From NCBI GenBank assembly GCA_002317135.1, contig DCIX01000025.1, positions 64,302 through 128,301 on the forward strand: a stretch of 64,000 nt of DNA, in the 5' to 3' direction. How positions within the stretch are numbered: the stretch's first letter is position 1; each line of letters opens with the position of its first letter. Below the pieces are notes generated by a model. The model saw only the letters and a list, made by a program, of their open reading frames with translations. It was not told the origin of the DNA and ran no database searches. Source of the stretch: Bacteroidales bacterium UBA1715. Its GTDB lineage: Bacteria; Bacteroidota; Bacteroidia; Bacteroidales; UBA1715. The position numbers were made by a program, and so were the translations under genes. Positions 1-13,290 of this stretch are shown piece by piece.

Positions 1-196
1 GTTCCCGGGAGAACTGGTCCATTTTTGTAAAGACCTTCAGAAATCCGTCCTGCAAAATATCAGAGGCGTCGTCACGGTTTTGCGCATAACGCAAACAAAC
101 CGCAAACATTTTCGATGCATACTTGTCGTACAAGGCTTTCTGCATCTGCCTATTGTTGCTCAAACATCCTTCTATAATTTCATCGTCGGTATACAT
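1..196 (-). CDS. RNA polymerase sigma-70 family (ECF-type) factor, N-terminal part; gene runs off the window start
   Basis: Manual minus-strand translation from ATG at 196-194: MYTDDEIIEGCLSNNRQMQKALYDKYASKMFAVCLRYAQNRDDASDILQDGFLKVFTKMDQF. It fits the sigma region 2 pattern (DAxDIxQxxFxKxF) common in Bacteroidota ECF sigmas. Confidence 0.55.
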   Translation of the reverse strand, partial: MYTDDEIIEGCLSNNRQMQKALYDKYASKMFAVCLRYAQNRDDASDILQDGFLKVFTKMDQFSRE

Positions 197-381
197 TATC
201 ACCAAATCAATTATAAGACATTGAAAAAAATGAAATAGTTACATCTTATTTCAAGATTTTTTCAAAAATAAGAAAATACTGCCAAACTTTTGTAAAGAAA
301 ATAAAAAGGGATGACTTTCCGCCATCCCTTTTCAGCATGAATATTTTGTAGAAATGCGATAACTGCTCCTCTCTACTTATA

Positions 382-1077
382 TTAATTTTCTTTTTTGCAG
401 CAGCAACATTTGTCACATGACAAACATTTCCATACAAGTGCAGCAATAACAGCACCTGCCAATGGAGCGCAAATGAATATCCACAAGTCACACAATGCTT
501 GGCCGCCTTCGAATACTGCAGGAGCAATACTACGAGCTGGGTTCACACTTGTTCCTGTGATTGGAATAAGTACAATGTGAATCAAAATTAACGACAAACC
601 GATTGCAAGACCAGCAAGGTTGCTATTTCCTTTTTCTGAATCAGTAACACCAAGTACAACCAATACGAAAATGAATGTACCAAGTAATTCAGCCAAGAAA
701 CCTGCACAAGAAGAAACACCGTCAGCACAAGCATTTGCACCAGTTTCTGTTGCGTATGACATATCTATACCTTGTGTTAAAGCCCAAAGCAAACCAGAAC
801 CGATAAAAGCACCGATAATTTGGAACACTACATATAAAGCAGCATCCTTACCGCTCATTCTACCACTTGCAAATACACCAAGAGTAATTGCAGGATTAAT
901 ATGACATCCCGAAACACCACCAATCGCATGTGCCATTGCCACTACCGACAAACCAAATGCACAAGCAACAGTTAAAACTTGAGCAGTTGTTCCACAACCA
1001 CCATTAAAGATTGCACTACCGCAACCTAACAAGACAAGAACCATAGTTCCTATCATTTCAGCTACATATTTTTTCAT
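382..1077 (-). CDS. aqpZ: Aquaporin Z-like MIP-family water channel with Cys-rich C-terminal tail
   Basis: Two NPA boxes (HINPAITLG and SVNPARSIAP) and six hydrophobic segments. Start set at the internal MKKYVAEM (ATG 1077) because a TAnnTTTG -7 box lies inside the longer ORF. Confidence 0.9.
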   Translation of the reverse strand: MKKYVAEMIGTMVLVLLGCGSAIFNGGCGTTAQVLTVACAFGLSVVAMAHAIGGVSGCHINPAITLGVFASGRMSGKDAALYVVFQIIGAFIGSGLLWALTQGIDMSYATETGANACADGVSSCAGFLAELLGTFIFVLVVLGVTDSEKGNSNLAGLAIGLSLILIHIVLIPITGTSVNPARSIAPAVFEGGQALCDLWIFICAPLAGAVIAALVWKCLSCDKCCCCKKEN

Positions 1078-1100
1078 AGTTACTATAATTAAAGACTGGT

Positions 1101-1108
1101 CAAAAATA
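1101..1108 (-). promoter_or_regulatory. Bacteroidota -7 promoter box (TATTTTTG on minus strand) for aqpZ
   Basis: Plus-strand caaaaata matches TAnnTTTG on the minus strand, 24 nt upstream of ATG 1077. Confidence 0.45.
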
Positions 1109-1316
1109 CACGTTATTAGGAGTTTCACAAATAGAAAAAATCTATTGAACTATTTCTTCCCAAATATTCCTTTTATAATCGCATTTCCAATTTTTCTTTC
1201 CAACCCAGCCTTAGTTGTTGGAAGTCCCGTTTTCTTTGCGACAGACTGTTTAATCTTTGAAATACCTAAAGCCCTTTTCAACGAAAATGACACACCTGGA
1301 ATTTTCATATATACAA

Positions 1317-2495
1317 TTATTTTAATAAAATTTCAGAAATAAATATGCCCATCAAATATTCCTTACCCGGTGTTCGTTCTATATGAGGACTTACTGCGTA
1401 CACCTCTCCTTCGCCATATTTGTTTGTCCATATAGCAGGAGAACCGAAAGCCTTATACATACTGTCAGGGAAATATATTTCTTCATCAAATGTTGCCAAA
1501 ACTGTAAAATCCGAACAAGTACAATCATTATTATACTGAACAATCGGTCCATTATGATATATAATTGGAACTATTTCCTCTTCAACATCCGGGAAAAAAG
1601 ATTTTCCTTCTTCGGTAAACTTAATATTAGCCAAGACCTCACCTCTGTGCGTATGTTCAACATCTGGAATTACAACCGGACTAACATTCAAATACGTTCT
1701 ATTTTGCTGTGACACGGCATAAGCACCGGCACAAACTCCTAAAAGTTTTCCGCCTTTTTTTAAAAAAGTACGAACAGATTTCTTTCCTGAATCCCCCAAT
1801 CCCCCACAAATACTTTTGCTATCACCGCCCGGGATTATAAGCAAATCATATTTCTGTAACTCTTCTTCAGTAAATAAATCAGAATATAAAATTGACAAAG
1901 AGCCTAAATCATGTTTTTCATACAAATTCTGCCAATATCCAATTGTTTTTCCCTTTACTCCTGTCCCAGAATAAATAGCAGTTTTACAGGTACATTTCTT
2001 TCCTGAATAATCAAAATCTATTATAGGTGAAGACTTGCTAAACGATTCGATATACTCCGATGGCAATCCTTGTTCTGTCATTCCTGCAAGCACAACATTT
2101 TTATAATTCTTAGAAGGATAGTAATATGCTGTATCCAAGCAATGCTTTGCGATATATGTTTCAACTTGATACACTTTATTGTCTGCATCTGCGACCGAAA
2201 CACAAACTCTATTGTATTTTTTAGGAGCACCTTCTTTTTTATCAAATACTTCCAACTGGGAATCATCCAATTCGTAAATCACTCCCCATACAGAAGCATC
2301 CTTTTGTGGCATAACATTCAATACACCACATTTTCGACGTTTAGAATAAGTTGTCCAACAAAGAGAATGATTTTTTAATTTCGCATTACAAACCTTTTGC
2401 AAAAGAAACGGTGCAATTTGTTTTTCAACGCAATATTGTTTAAAATCATCCGAATTCAAATTTGAGCCATACGCAAAAATCAAATGTTTCGCCAT
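1317..2495 (-). CDS. Fusion protein: N-terminal gamma-glutamylcyclotransferase (GGCT/AIG2-like) domain plus C-terminal class I glutamine amidotransferase-like (BPL_N-type) domain
   Basis: The N-terminus has LIFAYGSNLN ... VWGVIYELDDSQLEVFDKKEG, matching the GGCT YGSN and catalytic Glu context. The C-terminus has LLIIPGGDS ... LLGVCAGAYA, the nucleophile-elbow GxCxG of the GATase1 fold. The start lies 1 nt after the upstream channel stop. Confidence 0.7.
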   Translation of the reverse strand: MAKHLIFAYGSNLNSDDFKQYCVEKQIAPFLLQKVCNAKLKNHSLCWTTYSKRRKCGVLNVMPQKDASVWGVIYELDDSQLEVFDKKEGAPKKYNRVCVSVADADNKVYQVETYIAKHCLDTAYYYPSKNYKNVVLAGMTEQGLPSEYIESFSKSSPIIDFDYSGKKCTCKTAIYSGTGVKGKTIGYWQNLYEKHDLGSLSILYSDLFTEEELQKYDLLIIPGGDSKSICGGLGDSGKKSVRTFLKKGGKLLGVCAGAYAVSQQNRTYLNVSPVVIPDVEHTHRGEVLANIKFTEEGKSFFPDVEEEIVPIIYHNGPIVQYNNDCTCSDFTVLATFDEEIYFPDSMYKAFGSPAIWTNKYGEGEVYAVSPHIERTPGKEYLMGIFISEILLK

Positions 2496-2496
2496 A

Positions 2497-4200
2497 TCAG
2501 TCTATATAATCAGAAAAACCAAAATCATGACCTTTTTGTCGTGTTACCATTTCCAAAGGTAATACAAATTCTTTTTCTGGCTCAATGTTTTTTCTAATAA
2601 TATCGGCGAGAATTTGTGCTTTCCCCAACGCACCTCCATCAAAATAACAAACTTTACATTCAACACGAAGATTAAATGTATTCTGACACTTTAAATAATG
2701 AGAAATATTCTTTGCATTCACGGCGTAATATTCATTTTTATCTGAATTCAAAGAAAATTTCTCGCGCATTGTCCGCTCCACATCTGTATATATTTTATCG
2801 AATGTTTCTACATCAACAAACGATTTATTTGCATCATCGTATGTAGCATCATGTTTTTGGCTACTATAACAGAAATGAAATTGATGTGGACGAGATTGTA
2901 GTCCCATAGCTCCAAGAATTGTTATTACCCAACTATCAGGTTGACTCGAAAGTCTATCTATATCCTGAATAAACTGTGGCAAGTTAGGACAATCATTGAC
3001 ATCAGAAATTGTAAAATATGTTATAGGATTATCTGCATCAAGTTCTATTTCTTTAGCAACATAATTAAAACCACCCAATTTTGCAATATGATATGCAAAC
3101 CAACTTGTTATTGGTTCTGTAGATCCAGAAGTGCTCACAACTGTCACTTTTGATTTTCTATCGATACAAACACCATACGGAGTATTTTTAGGGTGATTTA
3201 CGACAACTATCTTATCCTCTGGATTTTCCGATTGATTTATTGCATTCGCAAGATTATATAAATGTAATTGATCTGAATTTTCAACAGTAGTGATTATGTC
3301 TGCTTCGGCCATATACTTTCGTGTTAGAATAGTATTTAAAGGTACAAATCGTGGAACAGCAAATAGATTTGTATAGTGTTGATCTTTTTCGAACTTAAAA
3401 GAATGGATAATTCGACTTATGTTTTCTTGTGTTCTCTTTTTCTTTCTATCGTTATCCATTGCATCGGTAAAGCCACTGCCTATTAAACCGGCAGGAACTG
3501 CAAATATTGCAATTCCAAGAATACCGACCAAACAAGCTATCAACCTTCCGACAAATGTAATTGGAGGATTTTCCGCAAAACCTCCAGGATCACCTATATA
3601 TTGAGCAAAAGCCCAAACAACCGGATATGTTCCATCAACATAGACATCAGGTTGCGCGTCGTGTTCTACAAAAAACAAAATAAAAGAAAGAATTATCGTT
3701 ACAATAAATAAAAATTGCAACGACACCCACAATTCCATTTTCTTTGAATTAATAGCTTCTGAAAGCAAGCGGAACGATTTCATATAACGGAAAATTCTAA
3801 ACAAGCGGGCGATTCTCAGTGTTTTGAGAGCCGTGTATGGAATATTCATCACAAAATTCAAATAGAATGGATAGGTAGAAAGAATGTCTATCAAGCCATA
3901 AAAGCTAAAGCAATAGCGAATTCTCCCCCAAAAACCTTTGTATTTTTCATCCAATAAATCTGCACACCAAATACGAAGCGATACTTCCACAGTAAAAACT
4001 ACGGTTGGGAACACATCAACCCAATGCAAAAGCCGTCCATATTTTTCAACCACTCCATCGAATGTTGAAAGAAAAACCTCAACTGTACTAATAATTATTA
4101 ATGCAATTATAGTGTAGTCAACTATATTGTGCCATTGTTTTGTATGCAGATCATCGTCGAATACACGCGATAGTTCTTGCTTAATTTCTTGTATGTTCAT
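2497..4200 (-). CDS. Voltage-sensor-type ion transport protein (6TM) with non-canonical pore and about 300-aa uncharacterised cytosolic C-terminal domain
   Basis: S4-like helix LRIARLFRIFRYMKSFR has a positive charge every third residue. The S5-pore-S6 region reads WAFAQYIGDPGGFAENPPITFVGRL and lacks TVGYG. Residues about 270-567 are soluble and matched no motif I recognise. Confidence 0.7.
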   Translation of the reverse strand: MNIQEIKQELSRVFDDDLHTKQWHNIVDYTIIALIIISTVEVFLSTFDGVVEKYGRLLHWVDVFPTVVFTVEVSLRIWCADLLDEKYKGFWGRIRYCFSFYGLIDILSTYPFYLNFVMNIPYTALKTLRIARLFRIFRYMKSFRLLSEAINSKKMELWVSLQFLFIVTIILSFILFFVEHDAQPDVYVDGTYPVVWAFAQYIGDPGGFAENPPITFVGRLIACLVGILGIAIFAVPAGLIGSGFTDAMDNDRKKKRTQENISRIIHSFKFEKDQHYTNLFAVPRFVPLNTILTRKYMAEADIITTVENSDQLHLYNLANAINQSENPEDKIVVVNHPKNTPYGVCIDRKSKVTVVSTSGSTEPITSWFAYHIAKLGGFNYVAKEIELDADNPITYFTISDVNDCPNLPQFIQDIDRLSSQPDSWVITILGAMGLQSRPHQFHFCYSSQKHDATYDDANKSFVDVETFDKIYTDVERTMREKFSLNSDKNEYYAVNAKNISHYLKCQNTFNLRVECKVCYFDGGALGKAQILADIIRKNIEPEKEFVLPLEMVTRQKGHDFGFSDYID

Positions 4201-4267
4201 TTTCCCTAATCAAAAACACTCCTAAAAAAAAGATTGACTCTTTTTTTAAATTAGCCGTATAATTGGA

Positions 4268-4606
4268 TTAACGTTTAATCCAACTTAAGCCTTTATTTGT
4301 TGAACGATACAGCCCTTTACTTGTAGTAGCAATAATTTCATTCCCGGTTACCATTAAGCCATGGAAATCGCCGCACGAAGTTCCTGTATATCTTGACATC
4401 CAAGACAAGCCTTTATTTGTCGAATAATAAATACCCTTACTTGTGGCAGCAATAATATCTGTTCCGTAAACAATCAAGTCACGAAATTCGCCACACGAAG
4501 AACCAGTATAACGTCGGTTCCACGTTATACCTTTATTGATAGAATACTCTATCCCTTTGTCACTGTAACGAATAATTTCGTTACCATAATTAATCATTTG
4601 AGGCAT
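4268..4606 (-). CDS. Small BNR/Asp-box-like repeat protein (about 2.7 propeller blades)
   Basis: Tandem 40-41-aa repeats: SKGIYYSTNKGLSWMSRYTGTSCGDFHGLMVTGNEIIATT and relatives. SxNKGxSW resembles the Asp-box SxDxGxTW. Confidence 0.6.
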   Translation of the reverse strand: MPQMINYGNEIIRYSDKGIEYSINKGITWNRRYTGSSCGEFRDLIVYGTDIIAATSKGIYYSTNKGLSWMSRYTGTSCGDFHGLMVTGNEIIATTSKGLYRSTNKGLSWIKR

Positions 4607-4614
4607 AGGTGTGA

Positions 4615-4857
4615 TTATTTTTCTCGTTTCATGCTCTCCTTTGCTGATTCAATCTGCTTTTTGTAAGACTCAATATGTCTATCGTGAGTTGCAGCATGAT
4701 CAACCTTTGATTTTCTAAAAGAAGCCTTAGAAGAAGGAGTGCTTGCACTTTTTATCATCTTAGCATAATATTCGTTATCTTTTTTCTTTGCGTCCTTCTC
4801 TTTTTGCATAGCAGCACGCAAGTCAATAATTTTTTTACGATAGTATTCTTTGCTCAT
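4615..4857 (-). CDS. Hypothetical 80-aa Lys-rich, probably helical protein
   Basis: ORF packed 8 nt upstream of the next gene and 22 nt downstream of the previous one. No recognisable domain. Confidence 0.5.
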   Translation of the reverse strand: MSKEYYRKKIIDLRAAMQKEKDAKKKDNEYYAKMIKSASTPSSKASFRKSKVDHAATHDRHIESYKKQIESAKESMKREK

Positions 4858-4879
4858 AGATTTAACTAATCTAATATTT

Positions 4880-5692
4880 CTACATTTCTTTTGCTAACTC
4901 AAAAAGTGATTTCAACACTGGCTTTTCTTTCAAAAATTTCATTTTTGTCAAATCATATTTTGAAAAGTCAAAACCCTTTTCATTAAACTCACAACCATAT
5001 TTCTTATACTCTTCCATAGTAAGTATAAGAGAAAGATTTCCTCTTAGAATCTTACCTGTATGCCACAGCAACCGATCAAGCGAATCGTATGTTAATTCTT
5101 TAGGATTACCTAATTTCTTTTTCAACAAGTCTATTGCCTCAACAAATGCGATAATATTATCCACCATACTCGTCATTTTAGGCATCTCTTTTTTAGGCAA
5201 TCCACAATAACTCCATAACAACGGATACATTTCCCGAACTATAGAATCATAAATAGGGAACTGATAATTAGTTTCAAAATATGCATATTTTGTAATAAGC
5301 GAAAGAGCATGCCCTTTATCACTACCATCCTTTCCTATTCCATATTTTTCTGTAAAAAGCTTCTTTTCTTCACCGTTGCAAACAACAGTAAATTTTTCTA
5401 CATCTTTGTCTTTTAGAAAAGTCAAAAACATATCCGATAGTTTTTGCTTCTCCTGCAGTTTGGCCAAAACCTCTGCTAACTCTTCCAACCCATAATACCT
5501 TCGTCCCATCTGGGTAGAATACATACTATCAATTAAAGTTAACCGTGCAAGAATATTCTCTACGCTATTTCCCTCAATTGAATCAAAAACCTTTCTGATA
5601 GTATTCTTCCCTGTTACATAGCCAGATCTTTCTTCTCCAGTTCTTTCAAAAGAAGAAAGAATATTTAATATTTTATCAGTGTTTGTCATCAT
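4880..5692 (-). CDS. Hypothetical 270-aa protein, possibly OGG-fold/HhH-like (tentative)
   Basis: Motifs LTLIDSMYSTQM, SLITKYAYFETNYQFPIYDSIV and LDRLLWHTGK resemble, from memory, the SKxLHFxxPxxFPIxDSxV ... LDxxLW pattern of families annotated as 8-oxoguanine DNA glycosylase OGG fold protein. Not verified by any search. Confidence 0.5.
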   Translation of the reverse strand: MMTNTDKILNILSSFERTGEERSGYVTGKNTIRKVFDSIEGNSVENILARLTLIDSMYSTQMGRRYYGLEELAEVLAKLQEKQKLSDMFLTFLKDKDVEKFTVVCNGEEKKLFTEKYGIGKDGSDKGHALSLITKYAYFETNYQFPIYDSIVREMYPLLWSYCGLPKKEMPKMTSMVDNIIAFVEAIDLLKKKLGNPKELTYDSLDRLLWHTGKILRGNLSLILTMEEYKKYGCEFNEKGFDFSKYDLTKMKFLKEKPVLKSLFELAKEM

Positions 5693-5701
5693 TCTTTCAT
5701 A

Positions 5702-5729
5702 AAAGCCGACGCAGAAATGCGTCGGCTTT
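5702..5729 (-). terminator. Perfect 12-bp stem / GAAA-loop hairpin downstream of the 104-aa gene; intrinsic terminator or attenuator
   Basis: aaagccgacgca gaaa tgcgtcggcttt. On the minus strand it is followed by UUUUAU. It ends only 10 nt before the ATG of the next gene (5692). Confidence 0.6.
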
Positions 5730-5733
5730 ATAA

Positions 5734-6048
5734 TTATTTACCTGCTTGAACAAGCGTTACATCGTTGTCGGCAAGTTTAGTGTCGTCAGCATTTGCTACT
5801 TGAACACCAATACCCCACATTTCAACGAATTCAGTTTCGAAGTTGCCTACGCGTTTAGCACCTCCAACTGTAAGTTCGCCACCTTTTGCACCTTCAGCAC
5901 GAATTGACGCTAATGTAGCTGCGTCATCTGCCATTTTACCTTTGCATGATGGACTCATGTAAACACGAAGAGAACTTCCAAATGCTTTTTTGAACTCTTC
6001 TTTTAACTTGCGTACTGTTGTACGACCACTGATTTTTAAATCTGCCAT
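5734..6048 (-). CDS. Hypothetical 104-aa protein with internal duplication
   Basis: Two copies of a motif G-x2-[TR]-V-x2-[LF]-[KE]-x-EF-x4-G-x2-[LV]-[RQ]-V: SGRTTVRKLKEEFKKAFGSSLRVY and GGAKRVGNFETEFVEMWGIGVQVA. Followed by a strong hairpin. Confidence 0.6.
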   Translation of the reverse strand: MADLKISGRTTVRKLKEEFKKAFGSSLRVYMSPSCKGKMADDAATLASIRAEGAKGGELTVGGAKRVGNFETEFVEMWGIGVQVANADDTKLADNDVTLVQAGK

Positions 6049-6084
6049 AACTATTTATTTTTATTATTACTTTTTTTATTTTTC

Positions 6085-6243
6085 TTATTTCTTTTTTTTG
6101 CTTAAAACAGAAGAATTTTTCTTCTTACCTGTTGTATCTACAATACCTAAAGTGGCTATTTTGAGAGCTTTTTTAACCGCCTTAACATCTTTACGGCGAT
6201 CGTCTAACAAACCACTATCTTTCCCTTTTGTAAAAAATCCCAT
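6085..6243 (-). CDS. Possible 52-aa basic small protein (below ORF-track threshold)
   Basis: Manual translation gives MGFFTKGKDSGLLDDRRKDVKAVKKALKIATLGIVDTTGKKKNSSVLSKKKK. It fills the gap between two co-directional genes, 6 nt after the upstream stop. Confidence 0.3.
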   Translation of the reverse strand: MGFFTKGKDSGLLDDRRKDVKAVKKALKIATLGIVDTTGKKKNSSVLSKKKK

Positions 6244-6249
6244 CTTCTA

Positions 6250-6516
6250 TTATTTAAATAATCGTTTTAATTTATTCTTGAAACTATTTTTAGCCTTTCG
6301 AGCCTCTGCCATTCGAGCAGCTGCTGCTTTTCCTTCTTTTGTTCGTTGGTCTAAATGACCATCGGCACGACGTGTAGAAGACGAGGATTTTTTAATAGCT
6401 GGTTTTGCTTTTGTTGTCTTTTGAGCAGCACGTGCCTTTTTCGCACGTTCAACCATTTCTTTATATTCTTTGGTACGTTTGTCAACTTTACCAGATGCTG
6501 TTTTTTGTATTGCCAT
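6250..6516 (-). CDS. Lys/Ala-rich histone-H1-like basic protein (88 aa) with internal repeat
   Basis: Composition, plus the duplicated motif SGKVDKRTKEYKEMVERAKKARAAQK / DGHLDQRTKEGKAAAARMAEARKAK. Confidence 0.55.
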   Translation of the reverse strand: MAIQKTASGKVDKRTKEYKEMVERAKKARAAQKTTKAKPAIKKSSSSTRRADGHLDQRTKEGKAAAARMAEARKAKNSFKNKLKRLFK

Positions 6517-6534
6517 AGTCCTATAAATTAATGG

Positions 6535-6939
6535 TTATTCTTCTATTATTAAATCTTCTTCTTCATCAACAAATTCATCAAGTATTGAACTTGCCGTAGA
6601 TTCGTCAACACCAAGAATTTCTGCAAAAGCAAAGAAATTTTCTACTTCATCGTTTGCCAAAAAAGCATCTGCACACATCATTTGCAGACACAATGTCAAT
6701 ACCCCTTCTTTTTCTTCGGGATCGACTTGTTTAGCAGCTTCTTCAAGACATGAGGACAATTCATCTTCTGTCATTTTTTCTGTTGCCTTTATTGCACTTT
6801 CCAAATCGGAGCATAATGTTTTTACTTCAAGAATTTCTCCAACTTGTGCAACAAATTCTTTTTCAAATTCATCATATTCTCCATCTGCCCATACCGCAGC
6901 CGAAAGAAATGACGACAATGTTTTTGAGCTTGTTTTCAT
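6535..6939 (-). CDS. TerB-like (tellurite-resistance TerB fold) domain protein with acidic tail
   Basis: AAVWADGEYDEFEKEFV ... MMCADAFLANDEVENFFAFAEILGV is the typical paired DG/E helical TerB pattern. The C-terminus reads EEEDLIIEE. Confidence 0.6.
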   Translation of the reverse strand: MKTSSKTLSSFLSAAVWADGEYDEFEKEFVAQVGEILEVKTLCSDLESAIKATEKMTEDELSSCLEEAAKQVDPEEKEGVLTLCLQMMCADAFLANDEVENFFAFAEILGVDESTASSILDEFVDEEEDLIIEE

Positions 6940-6951
6940 CTGTTTATATAT

Positions 6952-7872
6952 TTATTCTATTACTATAAATTCCGTTCTTCTATTTACGTTCGATTCTGGA
7001 TTTACGGCATCTTTCAATTCGCTGCTTCCCTTTCCTTCCCACTGTAAACGGTCTTGGGAAATTCCTTGAGAAATCAAGAAATCAACAGCTGCTTTCGCAC
7101 GACCCTCCGAAAGTTTTTGATTAAATTTAGCATCACCTTCAGCAGATGTGTGACCAACAATTTTCAATTTAATTTGTTGTTGTTTACCCATCAATGTAGC
7201 TAAATCATGAAGTACAAACTTTGATGCATCCGACAAATCTGTTTTTCCTTTTTCAAACTCTGCTGCATTAAAGTTCTTTTCTATTTCTTCTATTTGTTGT
7301 ACATATACCGTATCAACTACCGTTACTATTTTCTCAATAACTTGTGGTTCTTTATTACAACTACGCATTAACAACAAGGCTAAAATTGCAATCACAATTG
7401 CAGCACCTATTAAAATCCATAACCAAGTTTTTGATTTAGTTGGTACAGGTGGAACATAGCCATTAAGATATTCAAGACGCCAACCGCCTTTTTCTCCCTT
7501 TACACCTTTTTCAAATTCGGCAATTTCTATATCATACGATTTTGCATGAGAAACCAATCTATCAAAACTAGGTTTTGTCCACATGCGTACAACTGCGAAT
7601 TTTATACCATCACTAGATGTCATATATTCTTCTGGCTCAACAAAGTATCCTTGACCTTGTGTATACCATGCGTCTCCTGCTGCAACATGTTCTTGGATTT
7701 CTTTCTCCGTAAGAAAAATATTTTTTGATCCACAATCTGGATTTATCTCATTAGGAAAAGATTTCTTGAAATCCTCATAGGTTGCTTGAGGGAACATTAC
7801 TTGATACGCATTGATAATTCCCAATGCTGTTCGGTTTTGTGCTTTTCCGTAAACTCTTACTTTGCTTGGCAT
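6952..7872 (-). CDS. OmpA/MotB-type peptidoglycan-binding protein: unknown cytoplasmic N-domain, one TM helix, periplasmic OmpA_C domain
   Basis: TM segment WLWILIGAAIVIAILALLLM. The C-terminus is KIVGHTSAEGDAKFNQKLSEGRAKAAVDFLISQGISQDRL ... NRRTEFIVIE, the OmpA_C signature. Confidence 0.8.
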   Translation of the reverse strand: MPSKVRVYGKAQNRTALGIINAYQVMFPQATYEDFKKSFPNEINPDCGSKNIFLTEKEIQEHVAAGDAWYTQGQGYFVEPEEYMTSSDGIKFAVVRMWTKPSFDRLVSHAKSYDIEIAEFEKGVKGEKGGWRLEYLNGYVPPVPTKSKTWLWILIGAAIVIAILALLLMRSCNKEPQVIEKIVTVVDTVYVQQIEEIEKNFNAAEFEKGKTDLSDASKFVLHDLATLMGKQQQIKLKIVGHTSAEGDAKFNQKLSEGRAKAAVDFLISQGISQDRLQWEGKGSSELKDAVNPESNVNRRTEFIVIE

Positions 7873-8020
7873 ATTTTTTTAATTAAACTTCCACATTACA
7901 AACAAACATCTTTTCTCAACCTTTTCAAAAGTCCTTTTTAGTCCTTTTCTAAATCTGTAAACAATCATTATGTAACAAAACCTGCCTCAAGAGCCTGATT
8001 AAGATGTTGTAGACATAGTA

Positions 8021-8036
8021 TTATCATTTATGATAA
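8021..8036. promoter_or_regulatory. 16-bp palindrome TTATCATTTATGATAA, candidate XRE operator O1
   Basis: 7-nt inverted arms TTATCAT/ATGATAA. An identical copy lies 67 bp away in the same divergent intergenic region. Confidence 0.55.
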
Positions 8037-8087
8037 TGCAATTATATAAATTTTTCAGGGAAAAACAAACAAATCATAACGAAAAAC

Positions 8088-8103
8088 TTATCATTTATGA
8101 TAA
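8088..8103. promoter_or_regulatory. 16-bp palindrome TTATCATTTATGATAA, candidate XRE operator O2
   Basis: Identical to 8021-8036. It lies just upstream of a near-consensus -7 box (taaacttg, 8118-8125) for the XRE gene. Confidence 0.55.
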
Positions 8104-8130
8104 TAAACAAGCGGTAATAAACTTGTTCAT

Positions 8131-8376
8131 TTGAACAATTCAAATTGTTTTACCGTGAACGAAGCAGATTTGTATAAAAAAATCGGACAACGAATTAAGT
8201 TTTTACGAGAGCAAGAAGGCATTTCGCAACATGAACTTGCGCTTCGTTGCGATTTTGAGACATCAAATATGTGCAGAATAGAATCAGGGAAAACTAATCT
8301 TACCGTAAAAACAATTGCCACAATAGCAAAGGCTCTGGAACTTCCATTTTATAGAATTACAGAAGGGATAAAATAG
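8131..8376 (+). CDS. XRE-family helix-turn-helix transcriptional regulator
   Basis: LYKKIGQRIKFLREQEGISQHELALRCDFETSNMCRIESGKTNLTVKTIATIAKAL is a canonical HTH_3 sequence. The true start is uncertain; the in-frame GTG at 8155 is more likely than the TTG at 8131. Confidence 0.85.
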   Translation: MNNSNCFTVNEADLYKKIGQRIKFLREQEGISQHELALRCDFETSNMCRIESGKTNLTVKTIATIAKALELPFYRITEGIK

Positions 8377-8386
8377 ATATATAGGG

Positions 8387-9685
8387 TTATAACCGTTTCA
8401 AATAAGGAATAAAAGCATATAAAGGTACATTCACCAAATTTTCTTGCTCAATCATATTCTTCATAGAAATTCGTACAGCCTTTAAATTTGGATTTTTTTG
8501 TAGAAAAGCTTTTAATGATTTTGCATGAACATTTTCTTCCGCTTTTACTTCTATCGGGAAAACATTCATTGTACCTTGAATCACAAAATCTAGTTCTTTA
8601 TGAGCGTCGTCAGAGGAATAATAAAAAGGATTCATTTTATTGGAAATCATTTGAGTTGCCACAAACAATTCTGTGAACATACCTTTATATTCAGAAAAAA
8701 TATTATTATTAACCAACATTGATTCAGCAGAAGTGGCCGCGAGAGCACCCATTAAACCTACATCTATCAAAAAAAGCTTAAAGGCTCCCATATCCTCATA
8801 GAATTTTAATGGCATCTTAACAACAGAAACTCTATTTACTTTATATATCAAACCTGCATCAATGAGCCATTGAATTGCCAATTCAAATTCCGAGGCTCTT
8901 GCACCATGTTTTAATGCACCATAAACAAATTTTTTATTTTCTTTTGACAACTGCGATGGTATGGAATTCCAAACCAAATTGATTCGAGGAACCAAAGACT
9001 GTGGAGCATGTTTCGAAAAATCTCTTGAATAATCAAATAAAATCTGATTTTGTAACGCCCGAACTTTAGTTAGTTCCCTAGTTTCAACAAACTGTTTTAC
9101 AACTGCTGGCATACCACCCACATAATAATACATACGCAGTAATTCTTGCAATTCAGTAGAAAGAAGATTTAAGACTTCGTAATTTTCTTGCATAATTACT
9201 TCAACAAATTTTGTCTTACCATTTGCTTCCAGAAACTCACAGAAATCCATAGGGAACATTCTAATCATATCAATCTTACCAACAGGAAACGAGATATTGT
9301 TATGTAAAGAAATTCCCAATAATGAACCTGCAACAGCTACAAAATATTCGGAAGCATCCTCTGAAAAGTATTTCAAAGCTTCTAAAGCTTTGGGACAATC
9401 TTGAATTTCATCTAAGACGATAAGAGTATCTTTAGGTGTTATATCAACACCCGATATTGCCGAAAGAGAAAGTATTATGGAGTGAATATCAGTAGTATTC
9501 TCAAAGATAGAGCGTACACTCAACTCTCTATCTAGAGAAAAGAAGGCTAATTTTTTAAATTCAGATTTTCCAAACTCCTTTAAAATATATGTTTTTCCTA
9601 TTTGTCGAGCCCCACTTAAAACCAATGGTTTTCTATCTTCACTCAATTTCCACTGTATCAAATCATTATAAACACTCCTATACAT
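8387..9685 (-). CDS. AAA-family ATPase of the AAA_14 / DUF4143 type
   Basis: Walker A LSGARQIGKTY, Walker B LIVLDEIQ, and the length and C-terminal region typical of the multi-copy Bacteroidota DUF4143 ATPases. Confidence 0.8.
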   Translation of the reverse strand: MYRSVYNDLIQWKLSEDRKPLVLSGARQIGKTYILKEFGKSEFKKLAFFSLDRELSVRSIFENTTDIHSIILSLSAISGVDITPKDTLIVLDEIQDCPKALEALKYFSEDASEYFVAVAGSLLGISLHNNISFPVGKIDMIRMFPMDFCEFLEANGKTKFVEVIMQENYEVLNLLSTELQELLRMYYYVGGMPAVVKQFVETRELTKVRALQNQILFDYSRDFSKHAPQSLVPRINLVWNSIPSQLSKENKKFVYGALKHGARASEFELAIQWLIDAGLIYKVNRVSVVKMPLKFYEDMGAFKLFLIDVGLMGALAATSAESMLVNNNIFSEYKGMFTELFVATQMISNKMNPFYYSSDDAHKELDFVIQGTMNVFPIEVKAEENVHAKSLKAFLQKNPNLKAVRISMKNMIEQENLVNVPLYAFIPYLKRL

Positions 9686-9691
9686 AATAAT

Positions 9692-9809
9692 TACATTTTT
9701 CGTGATGAGATTTCACAACAAATATACACTTTTCGTAACAAGTTTAGTATAGAACAACACATTTTTCGTTAGGAGTTTTATACAAAAAAAATACACTTTT
9801 CGTTAGGAA
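9692..9809. repeat. Four phased direct repeats (consensus yACAyTTTTCGTnAnnAG) at 33-34 bp spacing
   Basis: Copies at 9692-9709 tacatttttcgtgatgag, 9725-9742 tacacttttcgtaacaag, 9758-9775 cacatttttcgttaggag and 9792-9809 tacacttttcgttaggaa. They sit directly upstream of the AAA ATPase start (9685). Confidence 0.75.
9719..9726 (-). promoter_or_regulatory. -7 promoter box (TATATTTG on minus strand) for the AAA ATPase gene
   Basis: Plus-strand caaatata matches TAnnTTTG, 34 nt upstream of ATG 9685. It overlaps repeat 2. Confidence 0.4.
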
Positions 9810-9826
9810 TAATTGGTATTACCTTT

Positions 9827-11227
9827 TTATTTACACCTAGGTAAATCCTTAATACGAGGGTACAATTGTTGGTTATAAATGGTATCATCATATTTACGAA
9901 CATAAGGAAGCGCATACTTCTGCCAAATGTCCATTTCTTCCTTTTCGGACCTAAAAACTCCTGAATCCTTTAACGGAATCCAAATATCATAGGTTATTTT
10001 CACAGCCAAATCATAATAACGATTAAGCGCCGTCTCCCAACAAACATATTTATTTGTCATCAAACTGTCAATATATGGTTTATACAAACTATCTATCGCA
10101 GTCTTAAAACTTTCCAAATCAAAGCCAACAGTTTTTTCAACTGATGAACTTTTTTGTTCGGTAATTATTGCATAAACAGATGCACTATCACTTGATGTTT
10201 TAACAGGAACAGATTTAATAACTTGTTCTTCTGACTCGTAATTTACCATAACCGTATCCCGAACAAATGCTCTATTACTTAACGTTTTAACAGGAATAGA
10301 TTCAACAAATTGCTCTTCTGACTCGTAATTTTCCACAACCGTTTTTCGAACAGAAGTACTATCATTCAACACTTCATTATTGTTAACATATTCAACAGTT
10401 GATACTGATGGTCGAAGTACAGTTTCTGTTTTTTTTAACATAAAAAAACAAAATAGAACAATCATAAACACAAGAAGTCCAGAAACTATTCTTCTCAACC
10501 AATACAAACGTAATTGCTGCTGTATTTCAATAGCAGAACCATACCGTTTATCCCTATTTTCTGTAGTACATTTTTTTGTAACACCTCTATAGCAATACGG
10601 GAAGACATCTCCCATTATTTTTCCGAAAGAATATAAATCACTTCTACAATCAAGCACAACGCCTTCTTGCAATTGTTCCGGAGCAATATAGTTCGCACTG
10701 CCGGCAGGTTGTTTTAGAATTGCATGGCTATCGCTATCGGCCAAACCAAAATCAATAATTTTAACATGATTACCATTACGGGAAACAAGTATATTGCTTG
10801 GTTTTAAGTCTCTATGTATTATTTGTTTTGAATGAATATACTGCAAACCATCAAGCAATTCATTCACCACTGCAATACGGATACGCGAAGATGGATTTAA
10901 ACGAAGAAATTCCCGCAGAGTATAACCTTCAACGTATTCCAGCACAATACATTTTCCAATTTTAGAATCATATTCAAAAGAAAATGCACTAACAATATTG
11001 GGATGATACAGCAAAGAAGTTAATTCATACTCTTTGCGTAAAAGATTTTGATAAATTGTTTGTTGCGCATATTCTGGCTTTAATCCTTTCAACACAAACC
11101 ATCGTCCTTGGCGTTTTGCACGATATAGACAATTAAAGCTAGCACAAGGAATTTCCACATAATCAGAAAATTCCGAACATATCAATTCATTATTTGATAA
11201 TACTATACCAGAAGATGAAGTGTCCAT
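9827..11227 (-). CDS. Membrane-anchored Hanks-type Ser/Thr protein kinase with unknown extracytoplasmic domain
   Basis: [16 protein letters not shown] and SANYIAPE motifs. TM segment [14 protein letters not shown]. About 190 aa of C-terminal domain have no recognised motif. Confidence 0.85.
10197..10351 (-). repeat. 87-bp tandem duplication inside the kinase gene (29-aa repeat [17 protein letters not shown])
   Basis: 10197-10264 and 10284-10351 are near-identical at DNA level. Confidence 0.7.
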
Positions 11228-11265
11228 TCATACAAATATCACACATTTTTATGAAAAAAAGCTAT

Positions 11266-11835
11266 CTATTCGACCATAATTTCCTCCAAACCACCTTTTG
11301 TACCAAGAACGAAAGGCGTAGGAGGATTATCTTCCTGTATAAGATTATCTATATATAACGGCTCATGATGTATAAAAAAGGAACATTCAAACGTATTTCC
11401 CACTTGCAACTTTGAATTCAATGCAGAAACAACACGGAACTTTATTCCTCCTAAAAAAAGAAAAGTACATTTTCTATCTGGTTTCCATGAAACGGTTACC
11501 GTATTTCCTTCATGTAATTCCGACGTTTTAACTGATTGTGACACAATAAAATCGGAAGCTTCCGGAGCCAAATCATGTAATTTTACGAGAAAAGCATCCC
11601 AATGCTCGTATCCTAAGAACTGTGACAAAATATTTAACGTACTCCTACGGGTCATATCTGCCCCTTCTATATATCCCCACAAACGTTTTAATGTCGTAGG
11701 ACTGATAGTTACATGCATTCTCTCCCATATAACACCAACCAAAAACTCAAAATCGGAGGGTGTTCTAATTTGACGATTTACTGACTGTTCAATTTCATAC
11801 CGTAACATCAATATTTCTGGAGAATGTTTTGTCAT
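11266..11835 (-). CDS. Hypothetical 189-aa protein with N-terminal HTH-like segment, co-oriented with the kinase
   Basis: N-terminal TPSDFEFLVGVIWERMHVTISPTTLKRLWGY resembles an HTH module seen at N-termini of Bacteroidota signalling proteins (from memory). There is a 38-bp gap to the kinase gene. Confidence 0.55.
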   Translation of the reverse strand: MTKHSPEILMLRYEIEQSVNRQIRTPSDFEFLVGVIWERMHVTISPTTLKRLWGYIEGADMTRRSTLNILSQFLGYEHWDAFLVKLHDLAPEASDFIVSQSVKTSELHEGNTVTVSWKPDRKCTFLFLGGIKFRVVSALNSKLQVGNTFECSFFIHHEPLYIDNLIQEDNPPTPFVLGTKGGLEEIMVE

Positions 11836-11850
11836 CGCTTTTATTTTTCA

Positions 11851-11858
11851 CAAAAATA
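11851..11858 (-). promoter_or_regulatory. -7 promoter box (TATTTTTG on minus strand) for the 189-aa/kinase operon
   Basis: Plus-strand caaaaata, 16 nt upstream of ATG 11835. Confidence 0.4.
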
Positions 11859-11921
11859 AGTTGTTTTATCATTCTACCTACAGTCCTTTTTAGTCCATTT
11901 GGAAATTCAACTCCTACGCAA

Positions 11922-11929
11922 TACCTTTG
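11922..11929 (+). promoter_or_regulatory. -7 promoter box TACCTTTG for the MATE gene
   Basis: Matches TAnnTTTG, 21 nt upstream of ATG 11950 and inside the longer TTG-initiated ORF. Confidence 0.45.
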
Positions 11930-11949
11930 CCGGCAAAGATTTTCATACG

Positions 11950-13290
11950 ATGAAGGAAGAACGCGACTCACTTGATTTTAGCAAAGAGCCTGTAAGCCAA
12001 CTCTTTCGCAAGATGTTCATTCCTACTCTTCTTGGTATGGTTTCGATGGTGGGGCTTAACATTACCGATGGGGCTTTTGTTGGACATGGTGTGGGCAGCG
12101 AAGCATTAGCTGCTATCAATATTGTGGCTCCCTTATTTCTTATTGCTGGCGGTTTGGGACTATTATTCGGCATTGGCAGCAGTGTGGTCGCAAGCATTCA
12201 TTTAGCAAAAGGAAATGAACACGCAGCCAATCTTAATCTTACTCAAGGTGTGATTGCAAGTGTGACTATTGGAATACTTGTCGGAAGCATTGTGTTGCTT
12301 TTTCCAGAGCAAACATGTCTATTATTTGGTGGTTCTGAAGCACTTATGCCACTTACTTGTGCTTATCTAAAATGGATTGCGCTACTTACTCCATTCAATA
12401 TGTTCGGCATGACAGCAATGTTTATGGTCAGACTTGACGGGAAACCTGGATTTGCAGGTTTTATGAATAGTTTTTGCGCAATTCTCAACATTATTCTCGA
12501 CTATATTTTCATTTTTCCACTACAAATGGGTATAGAAGGTGCTGCACTTGCGTCATTTACAGCATTTGCCTCGGGAAATATTCCACTTGCAATTTTTCTA
12601 TTCACAAGAACAACAAAAGTTCATTTTCATCCAATAAAACTATCAAAAACAAGTCTATTCCTTTCTCTCCGGAATCTTGCATACCAGATAAAGATTGGTG
12701 CTTCGGCACTACTTGGTGAACTCGCCATTGCGTCTATTATGATTGTAGGCAACTATATGTTTATGCGTTTTCTTGGCGAAGATGGTGTTGCCGCCTATTC
12801 TGTTGGGTGTTATTGTCTGCCAATAGTTTTCATGATTGGAAATGCCATTATTCAAAGTGTACAACCAATAATGAGTTTTGCTCACGGTGCAAATGACAAA
12901 ATCCGCCTCTATGAAGCAAAAAAAATCGCACTAAAGTTTGCATTACTCATTGGTTTGGGCGGAATGATATCGCTACTATTTTTCTCAGAACCAATTACTT
13001 CTATTTTTCTTGTTCCAGACTGTCGGGCACACGAATTATGCAGTAACGGGCTGCGAATATTTGCACCCGCATTCTTATTTATTGCAATAAACATTGTTTT
13101 AATTGGCTATCTACAAAGTATTGAAGCAGCAAAAGCAGCAACAATTTTCACTGTACTTCGCGGATTCATATTATCCATTCCGTGCTTTATTTTCCTACCC
13201 TATATCGTTGGTACAAACGGACTTTGGTTAGCGTTGCCATGTGCAGAATGTGTAACAATGGTATTACTTTTTATAAAAATGAAAAAATAA
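11950..13290 (+). CDS. MATE family multidrug/oligosaccharide efflux transporter
   Basis: About 12 hydrophobic segments. The N-terminal PVSQLFRKMFIPTLLGM pattern and overall length are typical of MATE. The start was moved to the ATG at 11950. Confidence 0.8.
   Translation: MKEERDSLDFSKEPVSQLFRKMFIPTLLGMVSMVGLNITDGAFVGHGVGSEALAAINIVAPLFLIAGGLGLLFGIGSSVVASIHLAKGNEHAANLNLTQGVIASVTIGILVGSIVLLFPEQTCLLFGGSEALMPLTCAYLKWIALLTPFNMFGMTAMFMVRLDGKPGFAGFMNSFCAILNIILDYIFIFPLQMGIEGAALASFTAFASGNIPLAIFLFTRTTKVHFHPIKLSKTSLFLSLRNLAYQIKIGASALLGELAIASIMIVGNYMFMRFLGEDGVAAYSVGCYCLPIVFMIGNAIIQSVQPIMSFAHGANDKIRLYEAKKIALKFALLIGLGGMISLLFFSEPITSIFLVPDCRAHELCSNGLRIFAPAFLFIAINIVLIGYLQSIEAAKAATIFTVLRGFILSIPCFIFLPYIVGTNGLWLALPCAECVTMVLLFIKMKK

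Follow-up and report, generated by a model that had tools for sequence, protein, structure and literature searches.

A voltage-sensor channel paired with a GGCT-GATase1 enzyme in mosaic gene arrays of herbivore-gut Bacteroidales

Do five closely spaced genes in a Bacteroidales genome form one functional unit and, if they do not, which of them belong together? The genes lie in a stretch of 64,000 nucleotides (nt) of contig DCIX01000025.1 (assembly GCA_002317135.1, Bacteroidales bacterium UBA1715), hereafter referred to as the window. A preliminary description of this window had presented them as a self-contained module of unknown function, and had likened their organization to that of sensor-effector stress or conflict systems. 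The five open reading frames (ORFs) are indeed on the minus strand, at 1317–2495, 2497–4200, 4268–4606, 4615–4857 and 4880–5692, with gaps of 1, 67, 8 and 22 nt, exactly as described. They encode, in that order, a fusion of a gamma-glutamyl cyclotransferase (GGCT) and a domain similar to class I glutamine amidotransferases (GATase1-like), hereafter GGCT-GATase1, a channel, a 112-residue protein (BNR112), a Lys-rich protein of 80 residues (K80) and a 270-residue protein (p270). In comparisons with the closest public genome (locus L014, metagenome-assembled genome (MAG) JAZLFM01, ∼94% nt identity in the region) and with locus L047, the five genes and their neighbours gave ratios of non-synonymous to synonymous rates (dN/dS) of 0.04–0.29, with synonymous changes far outnumbering non-synonymous ones. 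The five ORFs are therefore real genes under purifying selection, and not chance ORFs.

I gathered 100 loci for comparison, 79 of them on GTDB contigs (one genome per species, with the channel as anchor), and the rest from metagenomes. The first 92 were searched with tblastn and clustered all against all, and 47 loci possess at least 8 kb of upstream sequence (hereafter the full-upstream loci). The set of five recurs only in the nearest relative, L014, and so does not stand as a conserved module. What is conserved among the five is a two-gene cassette, consisting of the channel and GGCT-GATase1, and the five genes are the distal half of one array of 12 genes, probably under XRE-operator control. 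The finding is best re-scoped, as a new channel-enzyme cassette and a new family of mosaic arrays with probable XRE control.

The channel-enzyme cassette

The cassette occupies the following positions of the window:

1317–2495, minus strand: GGCT fused to a GATase1-like (BPL_N) domain, 392 residues, beginning 1 nt after the channel stop codon.

2497–3431, minus strand: cytosolic C-terminal domain of the channel (C-domain), residues ∼257–567, alpha/beta, hypervariable and exchangeable.

3432–4200, minus strand: N-terminal module of the channel with six transmembrane (TM) helices, residues 1–256, comprising voltage sensor and pore (Ion_trans, E 1.9e-15).

The GGCT-GATase1 gene directly follows the channel gene in seven of eight independent contexts (the window, L009, L048, L011, L098, L099 and L100). 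The spacing between the two ranges from +15 to −16 nt, with overlaps of 4–16 nt being frequent, and the adjacency persists where the channel is only 28–33% identical to that of the window. Pairwise identities of the enzyme, the TM domain and the C-domain co-vary (r = 0.83–0.87), showing that channel and enzyme have long been inherited together. The fusion itself is rare, with 31 clusters in a set of 5.8 billion proteins, and is almost always linked to a channel. The sole GGCT-GATase-like homologue located away from a channel is found in L013 (10001–11203), after a two-component system, and possesses neither the YGSNL nor the KEG motif.

The proposed identity of the enzyme, a fusion of two folds directed at gamma-glutamyl or amide groups, is borne out by matches to GGACT/AIG2_2 and BPL_N above the Pfam cut-offs (AIG2_2, 59.9 bits; GGACT, 45.7 bits; BPL_N, 52.8 bits with a cut-off of 24.2). 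Its N-terminal half aligns along the entire length of human GGCT (2pn7, E 3.6e-10); the YGSNL motif is kept, and the Glu of a KEG motif falls opposite the Glu of EQEG in human GGCT, which is the catalytic Glu. Both YGSNL and the catalytic Glu are conserved across the fusion family, except in P0265. In the C-terminal half, C255, H371 and E373 are shared without exception by 23 sequences, and correspond to a G-x-C-x-G nucleophile elbow and an H-x-E pair.

The channel is 567 residues long, and matches Ion_trans over residues 24–246 with 57.2 bits, for a cut-off of 25 bits. Four Arg residues of S4 (R129, R132, R135 and R138), one at every third position, are invariant in the alignment. The pore loop of every aligned member has the sequence AQYIGDPGGF, so that YIGDPGG takes the place of TVGYG. 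The K+ selectivity filter T-[VI]-G-[YF]-G is absent from the channel family alignment. These features agree with the description of an atypical voltage-sensor channel with six TM helices and no K+ filter. In public databases the homologues P0013, P0016 and P0081 are named 'voltage-gated potassium channel' or 'potassium channel family protein'; since the filter is not of the K+ type, this label is unjustified. The channel family is present in at least 317 species-level genomes, and the 80 top-ranking ones are without exception MAGs of Bacteroidales, obtained from the guts of ruminants, equines and other herbivores. Within PHROGs there are only generic matches: the TM part of the channel hits phrog_7872, and GGCT hits phrog_2520.

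The soluble domain of ∼300 residues that had been noted on the channel is indeed there, as an unannotated C-terminal domain. Searches of Pfam and the PDB returned no sequence match for it, whether it was searched alone or through a profile of 62 members, and by this measure the C-domain is a new family. A Pfam match to the 'PI-PfuI endonuclease subdomain' was below threshold and seen in only 2 of the 62 members, and was disregarded. When 1.84 billion representatives were searched exhaustively, only 183 relatives emerged, all of which follow ∼130–300 N-terminal residues; the domain is found only fused behind pore modules of six or two TM helices, with the shorter relatives having a two-TM pore with the same filter motif. 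It varies far more than the pore: among 84 dereplicated channels the median identity is 37% for the C-domain and 70% for the TM part, and 40 pairs of channels, including tandem paralogues of a single locus, combine a TM identity of at least 90% with a C-domain identity of at most 50%. The tandem channel paralogues of L042, L058 and L080 are 92–94% identical in their TM parts and 26–33% in their C-domains, which looks like duplication followed by exchange of the C-domain.

The AlphaFold2 (AF2) model of the C-domain has a mean local confidence (pLDDT) of 78.5 and a predicted template modelling score (pTM) of 0.79. Its Foldseek neighbours are M14 carboxypeptidases, Atu2144, which is like N-formylglutamate amidohydrolase (FGase), the phage poly-gamma-glutamate hydrolase PghP, amidase_3, CCP5 and aspartoacylase, with E-values of 1.4e-5 to 1e-3 and a probability of ∼1.0, yet with template modelling scores (TM-scores) of only 0.30–0.56. 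The predicted fold thus resembles the alpha/beta fold of Zn-carboxypeptidases and amidohydrolases. Across 62 diverse C-domains, the only invariant residues are Y81, G82, A112, N118 and N246.

GGCT-GATase1 is one of three enzymes that can occupy the position after the channel. I scored the gene immediately downstream of 101 channels, and found a pyroglutamyl peptidase C15 (PepC15) in 20 cases, an M42-like peptidase in 21 and GGCT-GATase1 in seven, frequently overlapping the channel gene; for a further nine channels, one of the three enzyme types is immediately upstream. PepC15 possesses an intact Glu-Cys-His triad. The M42-like partner is a truncated M42/M20 peptidase of 241 residues, in which HxD, D, EE and H are conserved (best PDB match, E 3e-11). 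What the three enzyme types have in common is that they act on glutamyl groups, whether N-terminal, gamma-linked or cyclised, which they remove or convert. In SCOP, fold c.56 ('phosphorylase/hydrolase-like') unites the pyroglutamyl peptidases with Zn exopeptidases (M14, M20, M42 and FGase). On that basis the C-domain may be a pseudo-enzyme related to the very enzymes with which it is paired; profile comparisons of the C-domain with the PepC15 and M42-like families were negative.

Two loci capture the exchange of one enzyme for another. L046 and L047 are 97–98% identical to the window at the nt level from K80, through BNR112, to nt 769 of the channel gene. This point (window position 3432, residue ∼257) is the linker between S6 and the C-domain; there similarity stops, to reappear no earlier than the final 197 nt of the GGCT-GATase gene (window 1317–1513). 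Between these break-points, L046 and L047 carry a different C-domain, followed by PepC15. The C-domain and the enzyme have thus been swapped jointly behind an unchanged pore. In L047, a 3′ remnant of the GGCT-GATase gene, ∼190 nt long and with 88% identity, remains downstream of PepC15 (∼12644–12840), marking the end-point of recombination.

A strict specificity between C-domain type and enzyme type was considered, and is only partly borne out, as PepC15 occurs with very different C-domains. Nearest neighbours share the same partner in 20 of 40 cases when chosen by C-domain and in 15 of 40 when chosen by TM domain; with shuffled labels the mean was 7.8 and the maximum 22.

The array and its variation among loci

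Both the strand and the tight spacing of the five genes run on upstream and downstream, and the module is therefore not self-contained. The other members of the array, and the three genes that belong to the initial five but not to the cassette, are as follows:

1150–1308, minus strand: p52, Lys-rich, 52 residues, last gene of the array, after an 8-nt gap; in 33 of the 92 loci; dN/dS 0.04.

4268–4606, minus strand: BNR112, 112 residues, between K80 and the channel; a lineage-specific insertion without signal peptide.

4615–4857, minus strand: K80, Lys-rich and helical, 80 residues, a core array member; in 54 of the 92 loci.

4880–5692, minus strand: p270, all-alpha, a new family and accessory array member; 346 homologues; in 13 of the 92 loci.

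5702–5729, minus strand: GC-rich stem-loop of nine G/C-rich pairs with an AAA/TTT extension, in the gap between p104 and p270.

5734–6048, minus strand: p104, an orphan family of 104 residues; the commonest array member, in 57 of the 92 loci, often as several paralogues.

6085–6243, minus strand: p52b, Lys-rich (26.9% Lys), 52 residues; in close relatives only; dN = 0 relative to L014 and L047.

6250–6516, minus strand: K88, Lys-rich (22.7% Lys), 88 residues; in 18 of the 92 loci.

6535–6939, minus strand: TerB-like protein, 134 residues (Pfam TerB, 32.4 bits for a cut-off of 24.4); in 23 of the 92 loci.

6952–7872, minus strand: OmpA-like protein, 306 residues (OmpA306), first gene of the array (Pfam OmpA, E 3.9e-15); in 42 of the 92 loci.

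The upstream continuation, from p104 to the OmpA-like gene, has gaps of 6–41 nt, and at the other end p52 was missing from the original list of five. Taken together, the spacing, the operators and the promoter scan described below suggest a unit of 12 co-directional genes, from position 7872 down to 1150. The preliminary description placed the five genes directly downstream of an XRE-controlled operon; that operon is in fact the same array. Three elements ahead of it are of relevance to its control:

8021–8036, unstranded: putative operator O1, an exact copy of TTATCATAAATGATAA, just downstream of the −7 box and overlapping the presumed array promoter.

8088–8103, unstranded: putative operator O2, the other exact copy, a perfect palindrome-type site 28 nt upstream of the XRE start.

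8131–8376, plus strand: XRE-type helix-turn-helix (HTH) regulator, divergent from the array; its homologues carry HTH_3, HTH_19 or HTH_31.

The intergenic region between the OmpA-like and XRE genes is 258 nt long and contains both copies of TTATCATAAATGATAA; there are only two exact copies in the 64 kb of the window, a count that was reached in none of 100 shuffles. They are probably the operators of the XRE regulator, homologues of which occupy the same position in L005–L008 and L093, and tblastn finds an XRE gene in nine loci. A near-consensus Bacteroides −7 box, TATAATTG, faces the array at ∼8039–8046, and is read from its sequence as part of the presumed promoter. I scanned the minus strand of positions 1–8200 with a strict Bacteroides-type promoter pattern (TTTG-N17-23-TAnnTTTG), and found no match inside the array; the sole match, at 1101–1131, lies ahead of the aquaporin Z gene. 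As all gaps are of at most 67 nt and the array has no strict internal promoter on the minus strand, the co-transcription that had been suggested for the five genes is plausible. A scan for sigma-70 promoters and terminators gave counts at chance level, and is ill-suited to Bacteroidota. An Rfam scan of the region gave only sub-threshold matches, of which one, to CsrC, spans just the terminator-like hairpin.

Aquaporin Z (382–1131; NCBIfam PRK05420, E 2e-60) follows p52, and adjoins the array in close relatives only. Because it has a strict Bacteroides-type promoter of its own, it is probably a separate transcription unit, outside the array.

The stem-loop lies directly after the p104 stop codon and 9 nt ahead of the p270 start codon. 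After p104, a hairpin of at most −18 kcal/mol per 70 nt is present in 85% of 41 distinct loci; the corresponding share is 14% for random windows, and 0–11% after p270, p52, OmpA-like, PepC15, M42-like or channel genes. Across L001–L091 its position is kept while its sequence varies, and most copies have no T-run. I read it as an attenuator or an mRNA-stabilising element, which would raise the expression of p104 over that of the distal genes; along the predicted single transcript, it may attenuate read-through. Profile searches with p104 against the PDB, Pfam and the N-domain of OmpA306 gave no match. The OmpA-like protein is predicted to consist of an N-domain in the cytoplasm, a single TM helix and, in the periplasm, an OmpA-like domain that binds peptidoglycan, and its gene has the direction of the channel gene in every locus that carries it.

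The p270 protein had been described as an OGG/helix-hairpin-helix (HhH)-type protein that binds nucleic acids or nucleotides. Sequence searches of Pfam, NCBIfam and the PDB were empty, a comparison with EndoIII by hhalign gave a probability of 0.2%, and the p270 family profile retrieved no PDB sequence even at E ≤ 10. The AF2 model (pLDDT 88) is all-alpha, and has no significant Foldseek neighbour in the PDB or BFVD. The top of its structural list is occupied by the HhH-GPD glycosylases MjOgg (3knt), MutY and MagIII, at non-significant values (E 1.6–4.1, probability at most 0.25, TM-score at most 0.37). The OGG/HhH-GPD assignment is thus unsupported by profile or hhalign, with a structural likeness that is non-significant; for nucleic-acid binding no supporting evidence was found. 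Some p270 homologues are weakly flagged as PF27257 (HI_0787_N). Every examined context of the homologues, at ∼50% identity, is this same type of island, and in L093 p270 is accompanied only by a short Ion_trans protein.

The 80-residue protein is Lys-rich as reported (22.5% Lys), and K80 is the immediate upstream neighbour of 11 channels. BNR112 is found only in the window, L014, L046 and L047. As to its reading as a mini-propeller, it possesses three S-x-N-K-G-x-[ST]-W repeats, but its Pfam BNR score of 24.9 bits is below the 27-bit cut-off. As 112 residues can accommodate only ∼3 blades, and at least four are needed, a closed propeller would require oligomerisation. The mini-propeller, like p270 and K80, probably stands outside the channel-enzyme cassette, as an accessory or independent member of the array.

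In the 92 loci the channel gene belongs to a mosaic array of co-directional genes, drawn from ∼30 families, whose content and order are shuffled from one locus to the next. Within the 47 full-upstream loci, p104 is present in 38, K80 in 35, the OmpA-like protein in 28, p270 in six, BNR112 in three and GGCT-GATase1 in two. Other recurrent members are DUF4230 lipoproteins, a MetA-type outer-membrane barrel, short Ion_trans proteins, DUF1232, KAP NTPases, and GIY-YIG and PD-(D/E)XK proteins. The array of the window is thus one instance of a mosaic island type in herbivore-gut Bacteroidales. The islands possess no integrase and have housekeeping genes on their flanks; in the window, the GC content of the island (positions 1–12000) is 33–35%, against 36.5–40% in the rest, and thus lower by 2–4 points. 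Beyond the XRE gene, the following features are encountered:

8387–9685: DUF4143/AAA_14 ATPase gene (PADLOC candidate PDC-S01, E 1e-170).

9827–11227: membrane Ser/Thr kinase, at the upstream edge of the array, matching PD-T4-6 models through its kinase domain.

11266–11835: 190-residue protein without Pfam match, its N-terminus read as HTH-like, at the upstream edge.

The last two form the upstream border in at least 22 loci, with housekeeping genes beyond them in the window, and may be co-regulators of the island. Between the window and L014 the ATPase gene is cleanly present or absent, a difference of ∼1.25 kb, and it is found in either orientation in 20 loci; this suggests an independently mobile or selfish gene.

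Explanations for the cassette and its island

No hallmark defence domain had been seen in the five genes, and PADLOC finds none; scans of the five proteins and their neighbours against PADLOC, PHROGs and NCBIfam likewise assign none of the five to a defence family. The surroundings are of another kind. KAP NTPases of the arrays match PDC-S20, PifA and QatA, and a 447-residue glycine-zipper protein matches PDC-M09A. Candidate nucleases and NTPases (KAP/PifA-like, GIY-YIG, PD-(D/E)XK, PDC-S01 and PDC-M09A) are present in 27 of the 47 full-upstream arrays, and three GGCT-GATase cassettes have GmrSD with KAP, PvuRts1I-SRA with GIY-YIG, and MNT-HEPN beside them. The suggestion of a sensor-effector stress or conflict organization is therefore retained for the channel-enzyme pair and for the conflict-island traits of the wider locus, but not for the five genes as a unit.

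The explanation I favour, with a probability of roughly 0.4, is that the cassette encodes a ligand-sensing cation channel tuned by its partner enzyme, as part of an inducible stress or conflict island. The C-domain, probably a non-catalytic derivative of the carboxypeptidase/amidohydrolase fold, would serve as a gating or sensor module, and its ligand would be of glutamyl type: a peptide or amide that is gamma-glutamyl, pyroglutamyl or N-terminally blocked, or else a protein terminus. The adjacent enzyme (GGCT-GATase1 here, PepC15 or the truncated M42/M20 peptidase elsewhere) would set the level of this ligand, and thereby channel opening. The enzyme gene is probably coupled translationally to that of the channel. 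Ion flux or depolarisation upon opening would then be the output of an island responding to envelope stress or to conflict, whether with phages or with competitors. A bolder form of this proposal, in which the arrays are a new class of inducible, diversifying and membrane-depolarising immune or conflict system, with a pseudo-peptidase domain that senses a peptide-like cue or a phage protein and a deblocking enzyme that guards or resets it, in a logic like that of Hailong (below) but built on peptide in place of nucleotide chemistry, seems to me rather unlikely.

Several observations weigh against an enzyme-tuned channel in a conflict island. The fold match of the C-domain is weak (TM-scores of 0.30–0.56) and without sequence-profile support, and conserved H-x-x-E...H metal ligands were not found among the 62 diverse C-domains, which is why the domain is probably non-catalytic; because the fold match is weak, glutamyl binding is suggested by the fold relatives and not by a conserved pocket. 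The coupling between C-domain and enzyme is only moderate: where two C-domains are at least 75% identical, the downstream gene is the same in 42% of pairs, compared to 13% of all pairs. PepC15 follows at least two very different C-domains, and 44 of the 84 dereplicated channels have no adjacent enzyme. On the defence side, the five proteins are unmatched in PADLOC-DB v2 (best E 0.003–0.08, noise), and a pattern scan of IMG/VR, aimed at a phage origin of the channel, found no relatives. The core small proteins are 60–88% identical across families, which is unusual for immune genes, as is the conserved hairpin of the p104 mRNA, a feature typical of an abundant structural or stress protein.

The main rival takes up these last points: the island would serve cation and glutamate homeostasis, with the channel moving K+ or another cation under osmotic or envelope stress, and the enzymes supplying glutamate or 5-oxoproline as counter-anion or osmolyte, freed from gamma-glutamyl compounds, from pGlu-peptides or from N-terminal Glu. 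The OmpA-like, TerB-like, DUF4230, DUF1232, barrel and Lys-rich proteins would then deal with envelope or hydration stress, phages being uninvolved. All three partner enzymes release Glu or 5-oxoproline, envelope proteins dominate the content of the arrays, the flanks are housekeeping genes with no integrase, conservation is strong among the small core proteins, and the hairpin after p104 points to high expression. Established knowledge on the co-accumulation of K+ and glutamate, on glutathione-gated Kef and on the neighbours ChaC and ChaA points the same way. Aquaporin Z stands directly downstream in the window, but it has its own promoter and adjoins the array only in close relatives. Neither a hypervariable regulatory domain nor the replacement of a cassette between near-identical genomes would be expected of a homeostatic channel; the filter is not of the K+ type, and nucleases and KAP NTPases are found within the same co-directional arrays. 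I regard homeostasis as doubtful, if nonetheless the most serious competitor to an enzyme-tuned channel in a stress or conflict island.

A more sceptical position is that there is no joint function at all, and that the locus is a recombination hotspot with unrelated cargo, in which channel and enzyme are adjacent by shared descent of a two-gene fragment. The extremely mosaic gene order and content, the clean insertion or deletion of the DUF4143 ATPase gene between relatives, and the many channels without an adjacent enzyme would all be accounted for. Shared descent sits poorly, however, with an adjacency by start/stop overlap that persists, the partners co-diverging, as channel identity falls from 98% to 28%, with the convergence of three enzyme families of related chemistry on one slot, with the joint replacement of C-domain and enzyme at a domain boundary, and with purifying selection on all genes, and I consider it improbable. 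Closest to the initial proposal is a dedicated five-gene sensor-effector defence system, with p270 as the nucleic-acid or nucleotide sensor, the channel as effector and the enzyme processing a small molecule. Tight spacing, defence-island-like surroundings, the confinement of p270 homologues to this island type, and the HhH-GPD glycosylases at the top of the p270 structural list, though non-significant, can be cited for it. Yet the set recurs in the nearest relative only, p270 accompanies the long channel in just six of the 47 full-upstream loci (L093 having a short Ion_trans protein only), BNR112 is in three of these 47, the HhH-GPD signal is absent from Pfam, from profile (HMM) searches against the PDB and from hhalign, and there are zero PADLOC matches for the five. 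I consider a five-gene defence system highly unlikely.

Should the coupling of channel and enzyme be true, these would be voltage-sensor channels with a peptidase-fold gating domain, regulated by a gamma-glutamyl or pyroglutamyl enzyme, a combination undescribed for ion channels; control by peptides or amides would thereby join the short list of bacterial channel-plus-enzyme systems. Independently of this, the array defines about ten orphan families (p104, K80, K88, p52, p270, the channel C-domain and others), and is a shuffling, probably operator-controlled region that varies at the strain level in rumen and hindgut Bacteroidales. The defence and stress systems of these bacteria are essentially unexplored, and the loci hardly ever come from cultured strains. 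In the literature I found nothing relevant on the pairing of channels with peptidases, on GGCT in conflict systems, on HI_0787 or on arrays of this kind.

Comparison with known systems

The logic proposed here has a parallel in Hailong, in which the channel effector HalA is held in check by the product of HalB, and depolarises the cell upon opening (Tan et al., 2025, reviewed in PMC13434031). HalB is a nucleotidyltransferase that makes oligo-dA (PMC13434031). Both would be two-gene cassettes of a channel and an enzyme controlling its ligand, a likeness of logic only. The partner here is GGCT-GATase1, a C15 peptidase or an M42-like peptidase, with no nucleotidyltransferase present, and the channel is one of the Ion_trans voltage-sensor family, with a cytosolic domain that resembles carboxypeptidases.

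With the prokaryotic voltage-gated-like channels (Ion_trans, PF00520; KvAP/MVP, NaChBac/NavAb and the non-selective pores of NaK type), the present family shares the six TM helices, an S4 with four Arg, and a pore loop followed by S6. It differs in its filter, YIGDPGG in place of TVGYG (K+) or TLESW (Na+), which is loosely like the TVGDG of NaK, and in possessing a hypervariable alpha/beta domain of 300 residues where others have an RCK domain, a CNBD or a coiled-coil. For this domain, the best structural neighbours of the model are in the Zn-carboxypeptidase/amidohydrolase group, many members of which act on glutamyl substrates; in contrast to these, the C-domain has neither invariant His/Glu ligands nor sequence-profile similarity to them. 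The enzyme shares fold and catalytic motifs with human GGCT (2pn7) and with BPL_N-ThuA domains, which are here joined in a rare fusion.

Links between glutamyl compounds and cation transport are well established. K+ and glutamate are co-accumulated in osmoadaptation, K+ efflux by Kef, which carries a KTN domain, is gated by glutathione, and at the chaABC locus of E. coli the glutathione-degrading enzyme ChaC, of GGCT fold, is encoded beside the cation transporter ChaA. The cassette may be seen as analogous, in that a gamma-glutamyl compound or a GGCT-fold enzyme would be tied to cation transport. However, Kef and ChaA are antiporter-type proteins, and ChaC is a single-domain enzyme of the ChaC branch, whereas the GGCT here is of AIG2/GGACT type, and a GATase1-like domain is fused to it. 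Glutathione is not known as a metabolite of Bacteroidales. The cassette belongs to neither the Hailong nor the Kef/ChaC family.

At the level of the locus, the arrays recall defence islands and PADLOC neighbourhoods in their variable content and in the nucleases and NTPases that reside in them. Their OmpA-like protein is, like ZorB of Zorya, an inner-membrane OmpA-like peptidoglycan anchor, but has no MotA/ZorA-like partner here. They depart from defence islands in that p104, K80, p52, OmpA306 and the channel are not represented in PADLOC, and in that all are drawn together in a single co-directional and probably operator-controlled chromosomal array.

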